This document shows positions 1-51,133 of a stretch of DNA of 56,974 nt, piece by piece. This DNA comes from Armatimonadota bacterium (GTDB lineage: Bacteria; Armatimonadota; Fimbriimonadia; Fimbriimonadales; Fimbriimonadaceae), in contig JANNQV010000023.1 of NCBI GenBank assembly GCA_031400935.1, positions 1-56,974 on the forward strand, written 5' to 3'. The notes below the pieces were generated by a model. That model saw nothing but the letters and a program-made list of their open reading frames with translations, did not search any database and had not been told where the DNA came from. Both the position numbers and the translations under genes were made by a program. Each line of letters starts with the position of its first letter. Position 1 is the stretch's first letter.

Positions 1-501
1 ATGAAATCGTCGCTCTTGGCGACTCTAGGAATGGTAATTCTGTGCTCAATGTCGCGAGCGCAAGTAGTTGACACTTCTGCAACTGCATCTATAACCGTTG
101 GCCCATCGTTGTCGTTGGCACTCGTAACGAGCCCTGACTGGGGAACTGTCACAAGGCCGCCTTCTGGTTCGGCGAACTATACGCTAAACTACTCAACTGG
201 CGCGACTTCCAATATCAGTGGCGACGGCTATGCACTTAGCAACGGTGCACGTGGAGAGTTCACACTTAGCGGCACTGCAAATGCAGCAGTTACATTTTCG
301 ATCTCGATCGGCGCATTTAGCGGAGCGACTCCTGTAACGGTAGTTGCCGCACATATTAACGCTGCATCTAATTCAGGCACTGGCACTCTCAGCGGTGGCG
401 GGACACTAGCGCTATTGCTCGGTGGCACTTTGGCAGTTTCTTCGACGGCTACATTGGGCGCGCAAACCGCTACGGTCACAATCACGGTTGACTACCAGTA
501 G
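1..501 (+). CDS. Secreted pilin-like subunit (DUF4402-like)
   Basis: Signal peptide; Ser/Thr/Gly-rich beta protein ending LLLGGTLAV...TVTITVDYQ, typical of DUF4402/Csu-type subunits; directly upstream of chaperone and usher-like genes. Confidence 0.7.
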   Translation: MKSSLLATLGMVILCSMSRAQVVDTSATASITVGPSLSLALVTSPDWGTVTRPPSGSANYTLNYSTGATSNISGDGYALSNGARGEFTLSGTANAAVTFSISIGAFSGATPVTVVAAHINAASNSGTGTLSGGGTLALLLGGTLAVSSTATLGAQTATVTITVDYQ

Positions 502-529
502 ATAGCAACCGCCTTGAAAAGGCAATGAA

Positions 530-1363
530 ATGATAGTAACCAAATTTGGATACAAGATTGGAGCAATTTCAACAATTGCTTTAGTGTTTGGGATAGCCAT
601 CGGCCAGGGTCCAGGCGACCTAATTATCACGCCAACACGGTTAACTCTTGATGGAAAGAATAAGACTGGCGACATAACGTTGCTCAACCGAGGAAGTCAG
701 CCCGTAAGATACCGCTTGCGCTTTGTGGACATGGAAATGTCGGAAGAAGGCGGTTTACAGAGATTACAGGAAAAGTCAAAGTCTTCAGGCATTGACTTTT
801 TCCGGCTCTCTCCGCGAGAGATTCTATTGCAGCCCGGGGAATATCAACGCATCAAAGTTCTTGCCGACTTTCCGGCCGGTACCAAGGACGGCGAATTTCG
901 CTCGCATCTCGCTTTTGAACCGATTATGATGCCACGTGAAGGTCAAACGAGTCCTTCAGCCGATCAGAGCATCAACATCAAACTGGAATTGAGATCGGTC
1001 GTCACGATTCCTGTTATCGCAAGGCATGGCCAAGTTTCGGCTGTCGCCGCACTTTCAAACGGCCAAATTGAAACTGATGAAAAAGGCTGGCTTGCAAAAT
1101 TCACGATTTCTCGATCAGGGAACAAGACCGTTCGCGGAGACGTTGTCGTTTCGTTCTTTCCGAACAACAAAGACAAGCCGATCACTTTAGGAGAGATATC
1201 TGGATTGCCCGTTTATTTTCCGAACGAGAGTCGCAAAGTCTCCGTTAGGTTAACACAGGACATTTCGAAGCTCGGCAAAGGAAAAATCGAAGTTGAGTTC
1301 ATTGACCCTGAAAGGACCAAGGGATCGCCTATTTTGAGGACAACCATTGCTATTGTCGAGTAG
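530..1363 (+). CDS. Fimbrial/pilus assembly chaperone (PapD-like)
   Basis: Signal peptide; LIITPTRLTL...ITLLNRG, LSPREILLQPGEYQRIKV, GEFRSHL and TIPVIAR motifs of PapD-like chaperones. Confidence 0.8.
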   Translation: MIVTKFGYKIGAISTIALVFGIAIGQGPGDLIITPTRLTLDGKNKTGDITLLNRGSQPVRYRLRFVDMEMSEEGGLQRLQEKSKSSGIDFFRLSPREILLQPGEYQRIKVLADFPAGTKDGEFRSHLAFEPIMMPREGQTSPSADQSINIKLELRSVVTIPVIARHGQVSAVAALSNGQIETDEKGWLAKFTISRSGNKTVRGDVVVSFFPNNKDKPITLGEISGLPVYFPNESRKVSVRLTQDISKLGKGKIEVEFIDPERTKGSPILRTTIAIVE

Positions 1364-1365
1364 CC

Positions 1366-3975
1366 ATGTCACTCCATGCACTCCTTTTGGGACACGCTGC
1401 CATTTGCTCATTAACCCAGCAAAATTTACAGGTGCCTGAAAATCGGCTGTCAGCTTCGACTCTTTCAAGATCGAGTGACCCAAACTACGAACTGCTTCTT
1501 GTAGATGTTCGATACGGCAATCTTCGCTTAACAAATTCGCTTGGCGTTCTACAGGGTGAGAATGGACTGCGATATGTTCCAATAAGGCAATTGGGGCAGC
1601 ACCTAAATTTCCACTTTTTTGTGGTACCGCTCACCGGCCTAGTGAACGGTTTTCTTTCTGTTCCTTCTGACAGGATTGAACTCAGAACAAAGTCTGGCAC
1701 CTGCAAACGCAAAGGCGAGACTATTGGATTCGATCCTTCACTCTGCTTTGAGAAAGATGGCGAATTATTTGCAGAATCGCAACTATTTGCAATGATCACC
1801 GGACTGCGGTTTTCGTGGCGGATCCAACGATTAGAACTCGAAGTTGGCTCCGAAATACCGCTAAACGTTCGCAATGAAAATCTTATTCGCCCCAAAAACC
1901 ATGAATTGATTTCAACCAAGGATATGGAAGTCATTCGTTCTCCATACAAGGCGTTTTCTTTTCCAGCGCTTGATCTTCAGTTTTCCTCTACAACGGATTC
2001 AACAACTGAGCAAACAACTAGAAGCTCAAACTTTGGACTGACTGGTATTGGCGATCTTGGCTACATGAACGCGAAATATAGGCTCGGCGCAGGAAGCGAC
2101 GGCAGATTGTTTGCCGGACTTTCATTAGGTCGCGAAGATTCTAGCGGGGGGCTGCTCGGCCCGTTGCAAGCTACTCGTTTCGAATTTGGTGACTTGAGTT
2201 TCTCACCAGTATCGCTGCTTACCCGAGCGCGCAGCGGGCTTGGATTCTCCATTTCAAATTCGCCTCTGAACGGCTCAGACGATTTGGCAAACGAAAATAT
2301 AGAGGGACACGCTAGGACTGGCTCGACCGTCGAGCTCTATCGCAACAACGTTCGCTTAAGTTCGCTACCAGTGGATTCGACAGGAAAGTTTGTCTTTACC
2401 GATGTACCACTTGAAAGCGGACCAAACGTATTTCAAATCGTTGAAGTCACAAACGAGGGCGAGGTCAGGGAAGAAGAGCGAACACTTTATGGGGACGCTT
2501 CAGGCCCAAGACCAGGCCAAAGGCGATATCAGATTTCTGCAAGCCAGGTTGGAGAGTCAATTTTCGGGACTAGTCAGACCAGCTTTGCGACGAGCCGAAA
2601 CGAGCTGATCGGGCAATATCAACTCGGACTGACATCTGGCTCATGGATGTCGGCAACCATTGCTCAGCTTGACGCAGACGATGAATCTACAAGGTACTTC
2701 GGAGCGGGATACCATTCATGGGGCGGAGCAGCGAAATGGCATCTAAACGCGATGGCTGACGACTCAGGCGGATCGGCAATCTCTGGCGGAATTTGGCAGA
2801 AGTTTGGAAGCAACACGATTTCTTTGGAACACACTCGACTTAACGACGAGTTTAGAGGAAGCATCCTGCCTGAAATTGATTCGAACGCAACTTCAGTTAC
2901 AAAACTCAGGTTTGATGGAATCGGAAAAGTCAATCAGAGCCACCTCTCTTACGGATTTAGCGCCGATCGCTACGATGGAACGAATCCGGCAACACTGATC
3001 CGGGCGAGGTTAAGCGGCGGATCGGGCGACACGTATTTTTCAAACACGATGACGGCACGAGTTTCAAGCGCTCCATTTAGCGGGTCTGGACTGATTCAGA
3101 TCCGAAAGAGGATGGAGCGATCTTCCCTTCGATTCGACATGGGCTATGGAATGGGAGAGAATACGGGAATTCATTCAGCTAGAATCGGAATTGACAAGTG
3201 GCTCTCACCTGACTATCGCTACCGGTACGGGCTCGAATACGATGATTCTCGAGCGAGTTCAATTGCCGGCGTCGGCACAATTTACCGAGCATTCGGACCG
3301 ATTTTCGTTGGGCTCAATTTTTCGGCAAATCTCCGCGGGGGAATTAGCACGAACCTGCTTTTGTCTGCTGGTGTTTATGGGCAGTCGTCCATAGATTCAA
3401 TGCAATTGGTTCAACCAGGAAGTGCGGAAATGGGAACCGTTTCGGTTCGAGTTTTCTTAGATCGAAACCTCTCGGGAACGTTTGATGAAGGGGACTTACT
3501 ATTGCCTGGGGTTGGCATAAAAGTTGGGAGAAACTCCTTTGCGGCTAAGACCAATGGCTCAGGAATCTGCAATTTAGAACGCCTGATGACTGGTCAAGAA
3601 ATTGTGATCGCACTCAATGAGATTTCGTTTGAAGACCCAAGTTGGATGGCAGACAAACCTGGAGTCGTGGCCATACTTCGACCTGGCTCTACGCTCAAAA
3701 CAGACCTTGCAGTAATCGAATCCGCTGAAATTGAGGGACGGATTTCTGGAGTTAAGCAAAATACTGGTTACGTGGTGTGGTTGGTCAATTCGAACGGAGA
3801 AATGAAGCAAATCAGCTATGTTGACGACGAATTTGGATATGTCTTCAGCCACGTTCGCCCTGGAGACTACACGTTAGTTTTGAGAAGCCCAGAAGGAAGC
3901 GTGATCGCAGAGAAATTTGTCGTAGCCCTCAAGGGAGGATTTCTCAAGGGCTACGACTTTACAATACAGCCTTAG
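1366..3975 (+). CDS. Usher-like outer-membrane protein with C-terminal carboxypeptidase-regulatory/SdrD-like domains
   Basis: 869 aa; VELYRNN...GKFVFTDVPLESGPN motif, amphipathic beta strands, VFLDRNLSGTFDEGD motif; operon context. Confidence 0.7.
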   Translation: MSLHALLLGHAAICSLTQQNLQVPENRLSASTLSRSSDPNYELLLVDVRYGNLRLTNSLGVLQGENGLRYVPIRQLGQHLNFHFFVVPLTGLVNGFLSVPSDRIELRTKSGTCKRKGETIGFDPSLCFEKDGELFAESQLFAMITGLRFSWRIQRLELEVGSEIPLNVRNENLIRPKNHELISTKDMEVIRSPYKAFSFPALDLQFSSTTDSTTEQTTRSSNFGLTGIGDLGYMNAKYRLGAGSDGRLFAGLSLGREDSSGGLLGPLQATRFEFGDLSFSPVSLLTRARSGLGFSISNSPLNGSDDLANENIEGHARTGSTVELYRNNVRLSSLPVDSTGKFVFTDVPLESGPNVFQIVEVTNEGEVREEERTLYGDASGPRPGQRRYQISASQVGESIFGTSQTSFATSRNELIGQYQLGLTSGSWMSATIAQLDADDESTRYFGAGYHSWGGAAKWHLNAMADDSGGSAISGGIWQKFGSNTISLEHTRLNDEFRGSILPEIDSNATSVTKLRFDGIGKVNQSHLSYGFSADRYDGTNPATLIRARLSGGSGDTYFSNTMTARVSSAPFSGSGLIQIRKRMERSSLRFDMGYGMGENTGIHSARIGIDKWLSPDYRYRYGLEYDDSRASSIAGVGTIYRAFGPIFVGLNFSANLRGGISTNLLLSAGVYGQSSIDSMQLVQPGSAEMGTVSVRVFLDRNLSGTFDEGDLLLPGVGIKVGRNSFAAKTNGSGICNLERLMTGQEIVIALNEISFEDPSWMADKPGVVAILRPGSTLKTDLAVIESAEIEGRISGVKQNTGYVVWLVNSNGEMKQISYVDDEFGYVFSHVRPGDYTLVLRSPEGSVIAEKFVVALKGGFLKGYDFTIQP

Positions 3976-3995: not shown

Positions 3996-6701
3996 CTACG
4001 GATTCGCAACTTCGACAGCTATGTCAAACGTGAATCCTGACTCACGATAATCTACCGCGACCTTTGACCCATCGGCAACCTCCCCACTTAGAATCTTTTG
4101 AGCAAGCGGGTTCATGATGTGCGTTTGGATCGCCCTTTTGAGCGGTCGTGCGCCATAGATCGGGTCGAACCCTGCAACTGCGATTTGCGTTTGCGCCTCT
4201 TCGCTTAAGGAAAGCTGGATTCGGCGGGTTTCGAGCCGTTTCATCAGCTCGCTGAGCTGGAGGACCACGATGCTGCGAATTTCGGCAACGCCCAGCGAAC
4301 GAAACACGATCATGTCGTCGATTCGGTTCACGAATTCGGGGCGGAATGCCATGCGAACCTCTTCGAGAATCCGCTGCTTGGTCTCTTCAAACGAGCCCTT
4401 CTGTGTCTCGGGTGTCTCGCCCGAGGACTTACTGCTTTTCTCGAAGGATAGTCCGAGCCGAACTTCTGAATCCTCGGGCGAGACGCCCGAGCCACTTAAT
4501 CCAAATGGATCGGCATAATGCTGCGAACCGAGGTTGCTGGTCATGATGACCACCGTATTTCGAAAATCTACAGTCCTGCCATGTCCATCAGTCAGCCTGC
4601 CGTCGTCCAGGAGCTGTAACAGCACATTGAACACTTCGGGGTGCGCCTTTTCAATTTCATCTAGAAGCACAACACTATAGGGCCGGCGGCGCACGGCTTC
4701 AGTCAATTGCCCGCCTTCTTCGAACCCTACATAACCTGGAGGAGCACCTATTAACCTCGCAATCGAGTGCTTCTCGCCAAATTCGCTCATGTCGATTCGG
4801 ACGATGTTTTTGTCATCGTCAAAAAGGAATTCAGCGAGGGCCTTTGCGGTCTCGGTCTTCCCTACGCCAGTCGGACCCAGGAACAGGAACGAGCCAATCG
4901 GACGGTGCGGATCGCTGATTCCTGCTCGGGAACGACGAATTGCATCGCTCACTATGCGCAATGCTTCTTCTTGCCCCACTACTCTTGCCCGGAGCTTGTC
5001 TTCCATCGTCAGAAGCTTTTGCATTTCGCCCTGCATGAGCTTGCTAACGGGAATCCCAGTCCATTTTGCTACAACTTCTGCGATATCTTCGCTGTCTACC
5101 TCTTCTTTGAGCATTTTTCCGCTCTCTTGAATCCGTGCTAATTCAGCTGATTCTTTGTCTAACTGCCTCAAAATTTCAGGCATTTTGCCATGTTGAATCT
5201 CGGCTGCCCTGCCCCAATCCGCATCGCGTTGAGCCTGCTCAAACTGAAGCTTCTGTTCTTCATATTCCGTTTTGAATTTGCGAACGCTCTCGATTCGCTC
5301 CTTTTCCGCTTGCCATGTCGCTCGGAGTGCGCTTGACTTTTCTTGCAAGTCGGCAATCTTTTTCTCGGTCGCGGATAAACGTTCTTTGCTTGGTTTGTCG
5401 TCTTCCTTCTTCAGAGCTTCCACGTCAATGTGAAGCTGGTTCATTTGCCTTTCAACTTCGTCTATTTCGGCTGGAACGGAGTCAATTTCGATCTTGAGCT
5501 TGCTAGCCGCTTCATCCATCAAGTCAATTGCTTTGTCGGGCAGAAACCGGTCAGAAATGTAGCGCGAACTTAAGGTCGCGGCGGCTACCAAAGCAGAATC
5601 TGTTATTCGAACGCCGTGGTGAATCTCGTAACGGTTTTTGAGTCCTCGAAGTATTGAAATCGTGTCTTCGACGCTCGGCTCTGAAACAAAAACAGGTTGG
5701 AAGCGCCTTTCTAGCGCGGCATCTTTCTCCAAATGCTTGCGAAATTCGTCAAGGGTTGTTGCGCCGACGGTTCTCAATTCACCTCGAGCCAGCATCGGCT
5801 TAAGCATGTTGGCGGCGTCCATTGAGCCTTCCGCTTTACCTGCGCCGACCAAATTGTGAAGCTCGTCAATGAAGAGAATGATTCGCCCTTCCGAATTTTT
5901 GATTTCGTCGAGAACAGCTTTCAGGCGGTCTTCAAACTCGCCACGGTACTTTGCTCCCGCAATAAGGGCGCCTAAGTCCAGCGAAATTACAGACTTGTCC
6001 CGAAGGCTTTCAGGAACGTCGCCAGATGCAACCCGCTGGGCTAAACCTTCGACAACTGCCGTTTTTCCAACACCTGGCTCTCCGATCAAAACTGGGTTGT
6101 TCTTGGTTCTGCGACTGAGAACTTGTATGATACGGCGAATTTCTTCATCGCGACCGATTACAGGGTCTAGTTTGCCTTGCCTTGCCTTGGCCGTGAGGTC
6201 AATTCCGTATTTTTCGAGAGCTTGAAACTTGTCTTCAGGATTCTGATCAGTAATCCGCCTTCCCATTCGGAACGATTCGATGGCCTGTTCGATAGTCGCC
6301 TTATCTGCTCCATATGTAGATAGGAGCTTGCTTGAAAAGCCGCCTTCTTCGGCAATTCCAATAAGAAAGTGCTCGGCAGAGACGTACTCGTCCTTCATCG
6401 CTTCTGCGGCGTTAAAGGCAAAAATAAACGCTTTTTGAAGCCTTGGGCCGATCGTGGTTCCATAACCTTGGCTGGTAGTTACTCTCGGGTAAGTTCCAAG
6501 CTCTTCATCCAGTTTCTTTGCAATTAAACGGGGATCAACGCCAATTTTCTCCAATGCTGGAGCCGCAACACCGCCCTGTTGGCCTAGCATGGCGAGGAAA
6601 AGATGCTCGACTTCAATACTTGTATGTTGAAGTTTCGTCGCAACGTCTTGCCCCTCTTGAAAGAGTTCCTGTGCTTTGATCGTGAGTTTATCGAATCGCA
6701 T
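3996..6701 (-). CDS. clpB: ATP-dependent chaperone ClpB (with in-frame repeat insertion)
   Basis: Two AAA+ modules ([16 protein letters not shown]), coiled-coil M domain, YGARPLKR; start taken at MRFDKLT (6701). Confidence 0.97.
4403..4495. repeat. Inverted doublet of GTGN-N6-CGTCYCG-N6' hairpin units, in frame within clpB
   Basis: gtgt-ctcggg-tgtctcg-cccgag (4403-4425) and ctcggg-cgagacg-cccgag-ccac (4473-4495); span 93 bp = 31 codons. Confidence 0.9.
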
Positions 6702-6709
6702 AATCTTTA

Positions 6710-6730
6710 CTTGAGCCTCATACACTCAAA
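6710..6730. promoter_or_regulatory. HAIR-like (HspR) operator upstream of clpB
   Basis: CTTGAGC-N7-ACTCAAA versus HAIR consensus CTTGAGT-N7-ACTCAAG; lies between a TATACT -10 (6746-6751, minus strand) and the clpB ATG. Confidence 0.75.
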
Positions 6731-17920: not shown

Positions 17921-20900
17921 TTTACTCGCCAAATGGCGAGAAACGGGCGAGTGGTGGAGCGGTGAATCGCAAGCGGAGTTCACTCGATCCATAGCTTCAA
18001 ACGGCATTAGAAGGGAAACCAGCATCGAGTTGCCATCGCTGACTCATCGAAAACTGACACCCAAAGAGCAACAAGAGCTTCTTGCGCCTGAGACCAACAA
18101 CCGCGAAGAGTGGAACCTGCGAATTCACAAGCGGCGCGACGAAAAAGTGGCTCAGGCTTGCGGCTATCTTCCTCGAGAAGTCGAAGTTGTTTCCACAAAC
18201 TTATTGCCAAAAACTTATGCGGCGTTGCAGGTTCAAAGCGGATACAGCATCGGAAGAGGAACCATGCTCGCCGAAGAAATTCCTATTTTATGCGCTGGTG
18301 CTGGAATTTCTGCGGCTTGCCTAGCCGACCATTTTTCACTCATTGGTGCAGTCGAATTCGTGCGTCGTAGCAAGGCAGTCGGAATCAAGCCTCTTGTCGG
18401 TTGCACAGTTGAAATGGAAGACGGTTCCGAACTTGTTCTCATTGCGAAAAGCAAACATGGCTATCAATCGCTTTCGCACTTGCTGACAGGGTGCCATTTA
18501 GAAGAACCGCGCCAATTTCCGCTTTGCAATTGGCAACGACTCGAACAGTATTCACGAGATTTGATTTGCCTTTGCGGCGGGCATCGTTCGGCTGCGAATC
18601 GTCTATTGATTCAAGGGCGAACTCAAGAAGCAGCTTCACAAATTGAAAAACTGTGCTTAGTTTTTGGAAGAAGTAACATCGCAATTCAAGTAGATCGAAG
18701 CTATTTGCCGTGGGAAGTATCCGTGAATCGAAATCTGGAATCCATTGCCGATTCATTGGGAATTCTATTGGTTGCTGGTGGAAAAGTTACTCATGCTCGA
18801 CCCGAGCATTTCCCTGTTCAAGACGTGCTGGTTTGCACAGACACTCTTTGCCGAATCGAGGAAATCATTGGCCGAAAGCCTAGAAGAGACGAGTTTCAGC
18901 ATCAAATTTCGAACCATGAGCCCTTGCGAGAAATCAACGCTGAAAGATACTTACGAACACCGAGGGAATTTGGAGAATTGTTTTCTGATCGGCCAGAACT
19001 GATTGAAAACACGATCCGATTGGCAGATCGCTGCGATGACGACGTTCTTCCGCACAGAACCAGACTTCCACAAATGTATTCCGATCCTGGACATACATTA
19101 CACGAAATCGCATGGGTCGGAGCGCATGAACGGCATCCAAAGATCGCTCCTGGGTTGAAAAAACAGATTGATCATGAGCTAGAAAGAATCATTCGTCTCA
19201 ACTTTGCCGATCACTTTCTCACTGCTTGGGATATGTGCAATTGGGCGCGAGAAGAAGGCATTTTCTTTTCCGGAAGAGGTTCGGTTGTTGATGCCGCAGT
19301 TTCCTATTGCCTAGGTTTTTCAAGGATTGACGCCTACAAGCACAATCTGCATTTCGACCGATTTCTTCCTGACGATGGAAGCAAACGGCCAGACATTGAC
19401 ATTGACTTTGAATCTACGCGACGTGAAGACGTTCGCACATATGTGACACAAAAATATGGAGTCGAAAGAGTTGCCACAGTAGCTGCGATTGGAACCTACT
19501 GCACGAGAGGCATCGTTCGTGAAGTCGGCAAAGTGATGGGATTGCCGGACGCGCTGATCGGTTTCCTTGCCAAGAGAATGCATGGCGGAGTAACGCCTGA
19601 AAAATTGGAGTCTTCACTGCTACATCGCCCGGAACTTGCTGGAAGCGGAATCCCGAAGGAGCGATTCCGATGGGTTTTTGAACTCGCTGAGAGAATGCAA
19701 GACCTCCCTCGCAACATCCGTTCCCATTCTTCGGGAGTTGTGATTTCGAGTGAGCCGATTTCAAACACAGTGCCAGTTATGTGGTCAGCGACGGAATGTG
19801 ACATGTCCGTCTCGGACATGAGTGGCTTGACCGTCCCGGTCAAGAGTGGCTTGTGCTGCTCGCACGAGAGGGAGCATTTGCGAGACGCAAACGGAACGCA
19901 TATTCGGGACGAATATGCCACACATGTCCGGGACGGACATGGCACATCAACAAATCTCAGAATCATTCAATGGGACAAGCGAAGCGCAAAATACTACTTT
20001 GACAAATTTGACATTCTCTGTTTACGCGGGCAAAACGTTCTTCGAGGTACAGAGGAGAGAATTCGGGTTAGCCAAAGCGAATTCAGAATCGAGTCGTTTC
20101 CATTAGATGACGACGAGCCGTATCGAGCCATGCGAACTGGCGAACTCATCGGTATTCCTCAATCGGCTTCGCCAGCCATGAGGCAGGCGCATATTCGGGT
20201 TCGAACTTCCAATCTGCACGATGCAAGCTTGGTTCAAGCGGGAATTCGTCCAGGCGTTGGCGGCGCAGTAAAAATAAATGAATTGATTGCTCGAAGACGC
20301 GGAAAACCGTTCACTTTCGAGCATCGCGATCTTGAAGAGATTTTGGGATTGACCTACGGAATATTGGTCTTTCAAGAGCAAGTAGATCAACTTTTGCAAA
20401 AATTCGCGGGCTACTCTTCCGGAGAAGCAGAAGAGACCAGAGAGAACATTCATAAACATAGAAGAGAAGATTTTGGAGAGTCGGTGAAGGACGGAATCCT
20501 TGCTCGTATTCGAGCGAACGGATATGACGAAAATGTAGCTGAAGCGGTTTTTCGATACGTTTCCGAGTTCAAAGGATACGGTTTTGCGCAAGGTCATGCT
20601 TTGGCGTTTGCTGAAATTTCTATTCGATGCATCGCCTGTCAGCAAAATTATCCTGGGGCTTATTTTTCCTCACTCTTAGATGCTCAGCCAGCCGGATATT
20701 ACGGCCCATGCACTCTTGTAAACGAAGCTAGAGATCGAGGCATCGCAATTCTTCCTCCATCCGTGAACATGAGCACATTGCGATTTGAAGTTGAGGATGT
20801 TCTTTCGGCAATGGATCCAAAAATTCGATTGCCCGATGGCGGAATTCGGGTGTCGTTGAAGCAAATTTCAGCGATTTCTTCAGGAACAAGGGATCGAATC

Positions 20901-35576: not shown

Positions 35577-35748
35577 TTCCCCTTCCTCCCTTTTCACCAG
35601 CCAGGAAATTCTTCGAAAAGGGAGGAAGGGGATTAAGGGGATGGAGGGTTTTCTGGAGAGACAAGAGCAATCTTGAATTTGCTTCCAAGTCCTGTTACTC
35701 CCTCCCCAACCCCTCCCTCATCCTCGCTCCTCAGATAAGGGAGTGGCT
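35577..35748. repeat. CCCCTCCC/GGGAGGGG-type composite palindromic element, copy A
   Basis: ccccttcctccc...gggaggaagggg hairpin plus ttactcccctccccaacccctccctcat...ataagggagtggct; both arms match the reverse complement of 47881-48035. Confidence 0.8.
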
Positions 35749-37588: not shown

Positions 37589-37637
37589 ATAGCGCGGGCG
37601 TCTCGCCCGCTTCTGTGTTCCGGACGTCCCGTCCGGG
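37589..37637. repeat. Two tandem intergenic units of the CGTCYCG hairpin element
   Basis: atag-cgcggg-cgtctcg-cccgct and gtgt-tccgga-cgtcccg-tccggg. Confidence 0.8.
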
Positions 37638-38088: not shown

Positions 38089-38119
38089 TTTTGGAGTGCG
38101 CGGACTCGACTGCGGTTTT
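38089..38119 (+). repeat. Solo TTTGGAGTGCG-type REP
   Basis: ttttggagtgcgcggactcgactgcggtttt, similar to the arms at 44287, 49451 and 50996. Confidence 0.65.
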
Positions 38120-40521: not shown

Positions 40522-40608
40522 TTAGAACCTCGACCCTTTGCTAGTCAAAATAGCTGGATGAACTTTCTAAAAATGGCTCGACAGCGCTGAGGGTCGAGGG
40601 ATCAAACT
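40522..40608 (+). repeat. 87-bp CCTCGACCCT...AGGGTCGAGG hairpin element, copy 1
   Basis: Direct repeat of 41482-41568 (77/87 identical by manual alignment); terminal inverted arms. Confidence 0.85.
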
Positions 40609-41330: not shown

Positions 41331-41376
41331 ATTTGATACCTCAACCCTCACAGCGAAGCGAAGGGTCGAGGGTCTC
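41331..41376 (-). repeat. Short, inverted copy of the CCTCGACCCT element
   Basis: Reverse complement agaccctcgacccttcgcttcgctgtgagggttgaggtatcaaat matches both ends of the 87-bp copies. Confidence 0.75.
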
Positions 41377-41481
41377 GCTAGTACTGCTGTCGATAGTTGT
41401 CAAATGAACTCCTTGCAGACTAAGACCCGGATACTCGTGCTTCCAATTCTGATTGTACGCTCGAATCGAAAATGGAATTCG

Positions 41482-41568
41482 TTAGACCCTCGACCCTTTG
41501 TTAGTCAAAAGAGCTTGAAGTACTTCCAAAAAGTGGCTCGACATCGCTGAGGGTCGAGGGATCAAACT
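41482..41568 (+). repeat. 87-bp CCTCGACCCT...AGGGTCGAGG hairpin element, copy 2
   Basis: Direct repeat of 40522-40608. Confidence 0.85.
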
Positions 41569-44286: not shown

Positions 44287-44397
44287 TTTTGGGAGTGCGC
44301 GGGCTTGACAGCGCTTTTGCCACCTTTATCACTGTTTTGAACCTGATTCTAATGATGATAAATGAAAAAGCGCTGTCAAGCCCGCGCACTCCCAAAA
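44287..44397. repeat. REP doublet (REPIN-like), perfect 32-bp inverted arms
   Basis: ttttgggagtgcgcgggcttgacagcgctttt / aaaagcgctgtcaagcccgcgcactcccaaaa with a 47-bp AT-rich spacer, between divergent genes. Confidence 0.9.
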
Positions 44398-47880: not shown

Positions 47881-48035
47881 AGCCCCTCCCTTATTTCGAC
47901 GAAGGAGAAATGAGGGAGGGGTTGGGGAGGGAGTAAAGGGAGTTGAAGTTTTCTCGTGAATTTGTAGAATTACTACCTGCGAATCTGCTCTCCATCCCCT
48001 TGCCCCTTCCTCTCACTTCGTGAAAGGAAGGGGAA
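47881..48035. repeat. CCCCTCCC-type composite palindromic element, copy B (inverted relative to A)
   Basis: agcccctcccttat...atgagggaggggttggggagggagtaa and ccatccccttgccccttcct...aggaagggg; between convergent genes. Confidence 0.8.
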
Positions 48036-49450: not shown

Positions 49451-49577
49451 TTTGGGAGCGCGCGGGCTTGATCGCGCTTTTTGAAGGGCATTGAATTTTG
49501 GGCTGAATCTTGTGGTCCAGTAAAGTTCTAGGGAAAAAACGCGGTCAAGCCCCCGCACTCCCAAAAAACTCCCAAAA
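49451..49577. repeat. REP doublet (TTTGGGAG family)
   Basis: tttgggagcgcgcgggcttgatcgcgcttttt / aaaaaacgcggtcaagcccccgcactcccaaa, plus a duplicated ctcccaaaaaa. Confidence 0.85.
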
Positions 49578-50995: not shown

Positions 50996-51133
50996 ATTTT
51001 GGGAGTGCGTCCAACCATGGCGGCGCTTTTTTAGAAGTAGGATAAGGGATAAAAACGACTCCGACTTTGTCCTTTTTCCATTATCCGAGACCGAAAATCA
51101 AAGCGCCGACATGGTTGGACGCACTCCCAAAAT
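50996..51133. repeat. REP doublet whose right arm forms the apbE 3' end
   Basis: attttgggagtgcgtccaaccatggcggcgcttt / aaagcgccgacatggttggacgcactcccaaaat (33 of 34 complementary). Confidence 0.88.

Follow-up and report, generated by a model that had tools for sequence, protein, structure and literature searches.

The question raised by this locus is how an inverted pair of repeat hairpins came to lie in frame inside the clpB gene of an Armatimonadota bacterium, and why the gene tolerates it. The window, which is the whole stretch of 56,974 nucleotides analysed, holds the gene near its start. According to the preferred reading, to which we give a probability of roughly three in four, the pair is a REP-type doublet in a variable loop of the second ATPase domain of ClpB, likely placed there by a REP-associated tyrosine transposase (RAYT) acting in trans, and it has likely persisted there because ClpB can do without this loop as a ClpP-docking site. 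The features concerned are the following (window positions).

3996 to 6725, minus strand: clpB, an open frame of 909 codons; the probable start at 6701 gives 901 aa; TIGR03346 profile
4347 to 4526, minus strand: host loop between TSNLG and FRPEF, aa 734-793, 60 residues, where ClpA/ClpC have their ClpP-docking loop
4473 to 4495, minus strand: first hairpin unit on the coding strand, with a GTGG tag, a perfect 8-bp stem and a TCT loop; peptide SGSGVSPE
4426 to 4472, minus strand: spacer between the hairpins, 47 nt, unique
4449 to 4457, minus strand: LGL tripeptide in the spacer, resembling a ClpP-docking motif, at loop position 24, not 10
4403 to 4425, plus strand: second, inverted hairpin unit, with a GTGT tag and one T-G wobble in the stem; peptide SGETPETQ

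The original prediction had inverted hairpin units bounding 93 bp at 4403-4495, between TSNLG and FRPEF, and this is what the sequence holds: two inverted 23-nt REP-type hairpins, with the clpB frame open throughout. The 93 bp stand, but the 31 codons given for them do not, since the onset falls on the second base of codon 744 and 32 codons are touched (aa 744-775). For the hairpin, an 8-bp stem and a 3-nt loop are a better description than the original division into 6+7+6. The arms of the element are 25 nt long and 92% complementary, it folds with a z of −6.0 (DNA) or −6.6 (RNA), and none of 200 shuffles was equally stable. The element is identical in contigs from two runs of one study, both of which may be the window's source; because of this identity across the element an assembly error is unlikely. 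The hairpin pair is thus real and not a product of chance. As for sequencing runs with small shares, including one RNA run, none spans the whole element or contains an empty-site joint.

Regarding the state of the gene, the TIGR03346 profile scores 1319 bits against a cut-off of 1232, both ATPase domains are intact, and the Walker, pore, sensor and arginine-finger motifs are present in full. A search of the source genome with ClpB gave two matches, ClpB and ClpC, so this clpB is the sole ClpB match in the assembly. In comparison with the congener G001, dS is 1.5, dN 0.025 and dN/dS 0.017. The AlphaFold model of aa 571-841 resembles ClpB/ClpC structures in a structure comparison, with pLDDT of 48-55 for the insert blocks and above 90 for most of the rest. 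These values bear on the idea that clpB is on its way to becoming a pseudogene, with the insert as a sign of this, which we regard as negligible: the branch of the source genome does carry slightly more amino-acid changes (10-13 vs 6-8), but the difference is not significant (p 0.26-0.81), and frame and motifs are intact in the only clpB found. The original prediction named an unexpressed pseudogene as a reason to abandon its claim; the sequence of the gene shows no decay. Three further genes, at window 1-3975, converge on clpB; presumably they encode a pilin, a periplasmic chaperone and the usher of a chaperone-usher pilus.

The clpB hairpins belong to a dispersed family. A tag-stem-loop scan, whose pattern demanded a G-[TG]-[GA]-N tag, found 82 units in the 2.97-Mb genome and none in 1.5 Mb of Markov-simulated DNA. 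The tag is GTGN in 72 of these units, the loop is TCC or TCT in all 82, and the 8-bp stem is perfect in 58. The units form 45 clusters, 21 of which have outward tags at both ends, and the multi-unit clusters measure 60-152 bp. Two other occurrences lie in the window.

19798 to 19945, plus strand: cluster of the same family in dnaE2, in frame; the orthologous loop is short in 6 relatives
37589 to 37637, plus strand: two related intergenic units from the tag-stem-loop scan

The scan bears out the family link between the clpB element and the dnaE2 units, whose stems differ from those in clpB. Both clpB arms share a stem variant present in only 4 of the 82 units, and the symmetry extends a few bases into the spacer. 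The spacer itself has no significant match in the genome or in the fetched loci of relatives. As a decayed hairpin unit it showed no significant likeness to the family, and as a retained host loop none to the congener's loop (p 0.26-0.39). In a strict REPIN the doublet is copied whole and the spacer is conserved among copies; here the spacer is unique and cluster lengths vary over 60-152 bp, so the term does not apply in that sense.

Only 6 of the 45 clusters lie in recognisable genes (clpB, dnaE2, uvrA, dtd, ubiD, and a DUF4349 gene), all with the family in frame, which is a strong deficit because about 89% of the genome is coding. This tally leaves aside two cases: one unit within an ABC permease, where coding sequence probably matches the pattern by chance, and one doublet that lies upstream of a chorismate synthase domain and is probably intergenic. 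Stop-free passage in all six frames is a property of 57 of the 82 units. The orthologous loops are shorter in every case compared: dtd and uvrA (4 genomes each), ubiD and dnaE2 (6 each), although one ubiD loop is shorter by a single residue only. The prediction that the element repeatedly creates new peptide loops therefore holds as far as in-frame insertion into six genes and shorter orthologous loops go; in ClpB, however, no new loop arose, and an existing one was lengthened.

The closest published counterpart is GTAG-19 of Opitutus terrae, listed with 35 intragenic rows that include uvrA and dnaE2 (PMC3733652). As in the GTAG-19 dimers described there, the clpB element has a tag followed by a short perfect hairpin, tags facing outward, and a spacer within 20-100 bp (47 nt here). 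The shared traits of GTAG-tagged REPs also appear: a GTAG-like tetranucleotide directly 5' of the stem-loop (GTGG and GTGT here), a stem of 8 bp within the range of 6-13 bp and a short loop, and a family that is dispersed, mostly intergenic, and often arranged as inverted dimers. The match to GTAG-19 rests on encoded peptides (supplementary file 3 of PMC3733652) and not on a DNA consensus; peptides of the GxGVSP, GGTP/GETP, and GRDA types are common to both, and in-frame copies in uvrA and dnaE2 are found in O. terrae and in the source genome alike. Unlike GTAG-19, the family here has other stem variants and resides in another host lineage. A term search of four of the supplementary files of that paper returned no clp genes. 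The paper suggests that such intragenic inserts are neutral in loops, and the clpB insertion is a fresh instance of the in-frame insertion that it describes. Palindromic elements of Rickettsia, according to the same paper, likewise occur in frame in working genes, but they are CGTC-tagged or longer and have no dedicated transposase.

As for the host site, the loop between TSNLG and FRPEF has 60 residues in the source genome, compared with 28 in 29 and 26 in 18 of the 68 parsed relatives, and 40 in two congeneric ClpBs (G001 and P0002), with no hairpin in the G001 DNA. The insertion is thus lineage-specific, as had been proposed, and no relative has an equally long loop free of repeat DNA. A homologue search with the loop returned the source-genome ClpB alone among 7147 candidates. 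Since the 93-bp element brings a net gain of only 20 residues, about 11 host codons were lost, and the event was a replacement rather than a clean insertion; orthologous loops point to a similar loss of host codons at dnaE2 and dtd. As far as sequence comparison goes, the element lengthens and partly replaces an existing variable loop. Among 68 aligned C-terminal parts of ClpB, indels fall within aa 739-778 only, apart from one column near the end, and a full-length alignment of 7 ClpBs shows only small indels elsewhere.

Alignment with related ClpBs, from which an empty site and a target sequence had been expected, gave neither a clean empty site nor a target duplication, and no empty-site allele was seen in the relatives' loci or sequencing runs examined. 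Duplication of the target at family insertions was rejected in general, with 0-3 bases across 21 clusters and 1 base for clpB. In 49 of the family's 66 outer flanks the base before the tag is T; this T is absent at the GTGG end in clpB. Because the arms are near-perfect despite the synonymous divergence from the congener, the clpB insert appears to be young or refreshed. The idea that the congener's 40-residue loop is a degraded remnant of this insert found no support (matrix p 0.26, protein p 0.79-0.96), and the same is true for the congener's dtd loop (p 0.16-0.48).

A candidate for the mover emerges from the relatives. When 151 genomes were searched by pattern, 35 proved to carry the repeat, and inverted pairs 650-730 bp apart came to light. 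In 6 of 8 fetched loci a Y1 transposase lies between outward-tagged units (the Pfam cut-off is reached in 6, the NCBIfam RAYT cut-off in 3), so the same hairpins face outward around the RAYTs of relatives. A carB or GH38-like gene hosts these cassettes in frame, and one of them (L369) carries the commonest unit of the source genome. The RAYT clade has units on both sides at 15 of 30 loci and sits within long open frames at 22 of 30. It occurs in 32 of the 151 genomes, and the repeat is present in 22 of these 32 vs 13 of the 119 without the clade, by a hand tally in which kin are not independent. The arrangement resembles REPtrons (PMC8266576, PMC6006769), in which an HUH-Y1 transposase stands between inverted tagged hairpins; unlike REPtrons, the clpB element has no transposase, and the relatives' cassettes are mostly in frame inside host genes. 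Long proteins were discarded as fusions or errors in PMC6006769. No description of in-frame RAYT cassettes, of a palindromic element in clpB, or of repeated entry of repeats into one loop was found in the literature searched, outside which most subscription papers lie.

Within the source genome the cognate RAYT clade was not found (best E 0.059; the assembly is 96% complete in 67 contigs), and the congener gave no member of it either. The two genomes richest in the repeat, the source genome G000 with 52 and G149 with 47 pattern matches, are both without the clade at E 1e-25. Of the three RAYT-like genes present in the source genome, two have other repeats on their flanks and none has the clpB family there. 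The source-genome carB (contig C25, near 40777) is contiguous at the cassette site and represents the empty state. A scan for a RAYT beside 121 loci of the collection gave 0, with a profile built from 20 RAYTs of other clades that may miss this one.

Several further observations concern the relatives and other repeats. Cassettes at loci L364-L369 and L409-L434 lie in frame in carB, GH38-like, and other host genes, and those at the same host site bear different stem variants. The genome G016 has near-identical 130-bp doublets (L123:976-1106 and 1696-1825) with clpB's rare stem and a spacer conserved between the copies; taken as possible RAYT flanks, they enclose a small membrane-protein gene and not a RAYT. 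In the source genome, a REP family with a GGAG-type tag forms intergenic doublets at window 38089-38119, 44287-44397, 49451-49566, and 50996-51133 and flanks the RAYT-like gene C15:229259-229948, while a stand-alone RAYT in C50 is flanked by a third, longer palindrome family (L001:1355-1395 and 2020-2060). The window also holds an 87-nt direct repeat, whose two copies (40522-40608 and 41482-41568) share 89% identity and have internal inverted ends, another arm near 41361-41394, and copies of a purine/pyrimidine-tract repeat at 35686-35721 and 47910-47945, 92% complementary.

How the doublet reached clpB can be read in three ways. Mobilisation by a RAYT is inferred because of the RAYT loci in relatives and of work on other REP/RAYT pairs, for which single-strand cleavage and transfer are established (PMC8266576). 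A RAYT acting in trans would cut and transfer the single-stranded hairpin DNA into clpB, the 11 or so host codons would be lost during or after insertion, the insert would be translated as part of ClpB, and the event would be recent and near neutral. The doublet may, however, be the scar of a whole in-frame RAYT cassette from which the transposase gene was deleted internally. Family cassettes in frame in carB and the GH38-like gene, whose tags point outward and whose 5' unit shares its phase with that in clpB, are what such an origin would start from, and so are the long open frames on both sides of 22 of 30 clade loci. We nevertheless consider it unlikely: the clpB spacer matches no cassette, the 3' unit differs from the cassettes in phase, the second inner hairpin found at each cassette end is not recognisable in clpB, and 0 of 138 ClpBs contain a RAYT-sized insert.

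A still less probable origin of the arms requires no transposase: recombination or template switching would have duplicated one unit in inverted orientation about a stretch of local DNA. It would fit the stem variant confined to 4 of 82 units yet present in both arms, the symmetry running into the spacer, the loss of host bases at the site, and the failure to find a cognate RAYT in the assembly; it would still require the arrival of a first copy, the family is linked to one RAYT clade across genomes, and any likeness between the spacer and the congener's loop falls short of significance (p 0.26-0.39). The best reading of the clpB doublet remains a non-autonomous element, likely spread by a RAYT, in a tolerant loop.

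A likely reason for the tolerance of the loop is its position. It aligns with E. coli ClpB 722-748 and with ClpA from N606 onward; the IGL-loop region of ClpA, which maps to this host segment, is the ClpP-docking region (10.1101/820209), and the docking motif is absent from ClpB (PMC5540906). Grafting the docking segment onto ClpB, as in the engineered BAP, suffices for ClpP binding (PMC5540906, PMC4023160). The clpB insert thus occupies the same segment of the second ATPase domain as the IGL/IGF loop of ClpA/ClpC and the BAP graft; unlike these, it consists of repeat-coded residues of low confidence, with the look-alike LGL displaced by 14 positions. ClpC loops have 39-40 residues and carry the docking motif at position 10 in 39 of 39 cases, whereas in the source-genome ClpB [LIVM]-G-[FLI] stands at position 24. 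A docking-type tripeptide occurs somewhere in the loop in 4 of 68 ClpBs, and the congeners lack LGL. The ClpP of the source genome is encoded at C18:128850-129458.

These data make it very unlikely that the insert is kept for a function, either because LGL lets ClpB dock ClpP or because the mRNA hairpin tunes clpB expression. The site is the docking position at which a graft suffices, the RNA fold is strong (z −6.6), and the congeneric loop appears constrained; set against this are the displaced LGL, the rarity of the tripeptide, its lack in congeners, and the modelled disorder of the region. More doubtful still is the farther-reaching proposal that a selfish repeat gave this vestigial ClpP-docking loop its LGL motif, making a natural BAP-like ClpB that passes disaggregated proteins to ClpP, in a loop that has repeatedly offered repeat-made peptides to selection; the displacement of the LGL, and the occurrence of a similar tripeptide in 4 of 68 ClpB loops, make a repeat-made docking motif improbable. 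As for the constraint, 16 of 17 variable residues of the 40-residue loop are identical in P0002 and P0005, while about 50 of 840 sites differ elsewhere. Because these residues are kept in otherwise diverged ClpBs, the loop seems not wholly free to vary in this genus, which hints at constraint on an earlier expansion. A tree built with the loop removed (8 rows) left the three congeneric ClpBs as a polytomy, and only parsimony makes the 40-residue state the ancestral one.

Among 146 genomes of the host's taxonomic family the ClpB loop was measurable in 138, with 6 yielding no ClpB and 2 broken at contig ends. The 138 loops comprise 136 listed and two split ones, with lengths read by hand from match spans. 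Long loops, exceeding the 28 residues of the query by at least 8, occur in 7 of the 138 ClpBs, and 4 of these 7 contain a repeat dispersed in their own genome (the source genome, G027, G101, and G067). The G027 repeat occurs at 33 places in its genome, and that of G101, a 9-nt tandem unit, at 9. The G067 loop has a single unit related to the source-genome family, with 5 matches in its genome, although it is marginal on the source-genome matrix (p 0.05-0.10). The patterns for these three genomes were drawn after the loops had been seen; reversed controls gave 0. The other three long loops (G001, G068, and G149) show no recognisable repeat. A loop hairpin in G044, from another family, proved single-copy with two patterns and was rejected as a dispersed repeat. 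The contrast in long loops between ClpB (7/138) and ClpC (0/39) is not significant (p 0.35). Among the metagenome matches listed, all distant ClpB/ClpC, 73 of 80 loops were parsed, and the long ones have no inverted repeat above 8 bp.

The UbiD loop behaves similarly: the source genome has a doublet of the clpB family there, G149 has related units, G001 has short tandem repeats, and G027 has a palindrome of purine/pyrimidine tracts. The best explanation for finding repeats again and again in the ClpB loop is that they survive at one tolerant site, not that they are targeted to it. Most genes shared in PMC3733652 have their inserts at different sites, unlike the repeated entry into one loop seen here.

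As a single event the clpB insertion is ordinary, but it helps to explain in structural terms why the loop is tolerant, and it points to a candidate clade of transposases. GTAG-19-like intragenic repeats are now tied to a RAYT clade with in-frame cassettes in host genes, a candidate enzyme-substrate pair. Different repeat families have independently invaded one ClpB loop, and one UbiD loop, in genomes related to each other, and together the two loops provide a clear comparative case in which tolerant loops collect whatever repeat is active.
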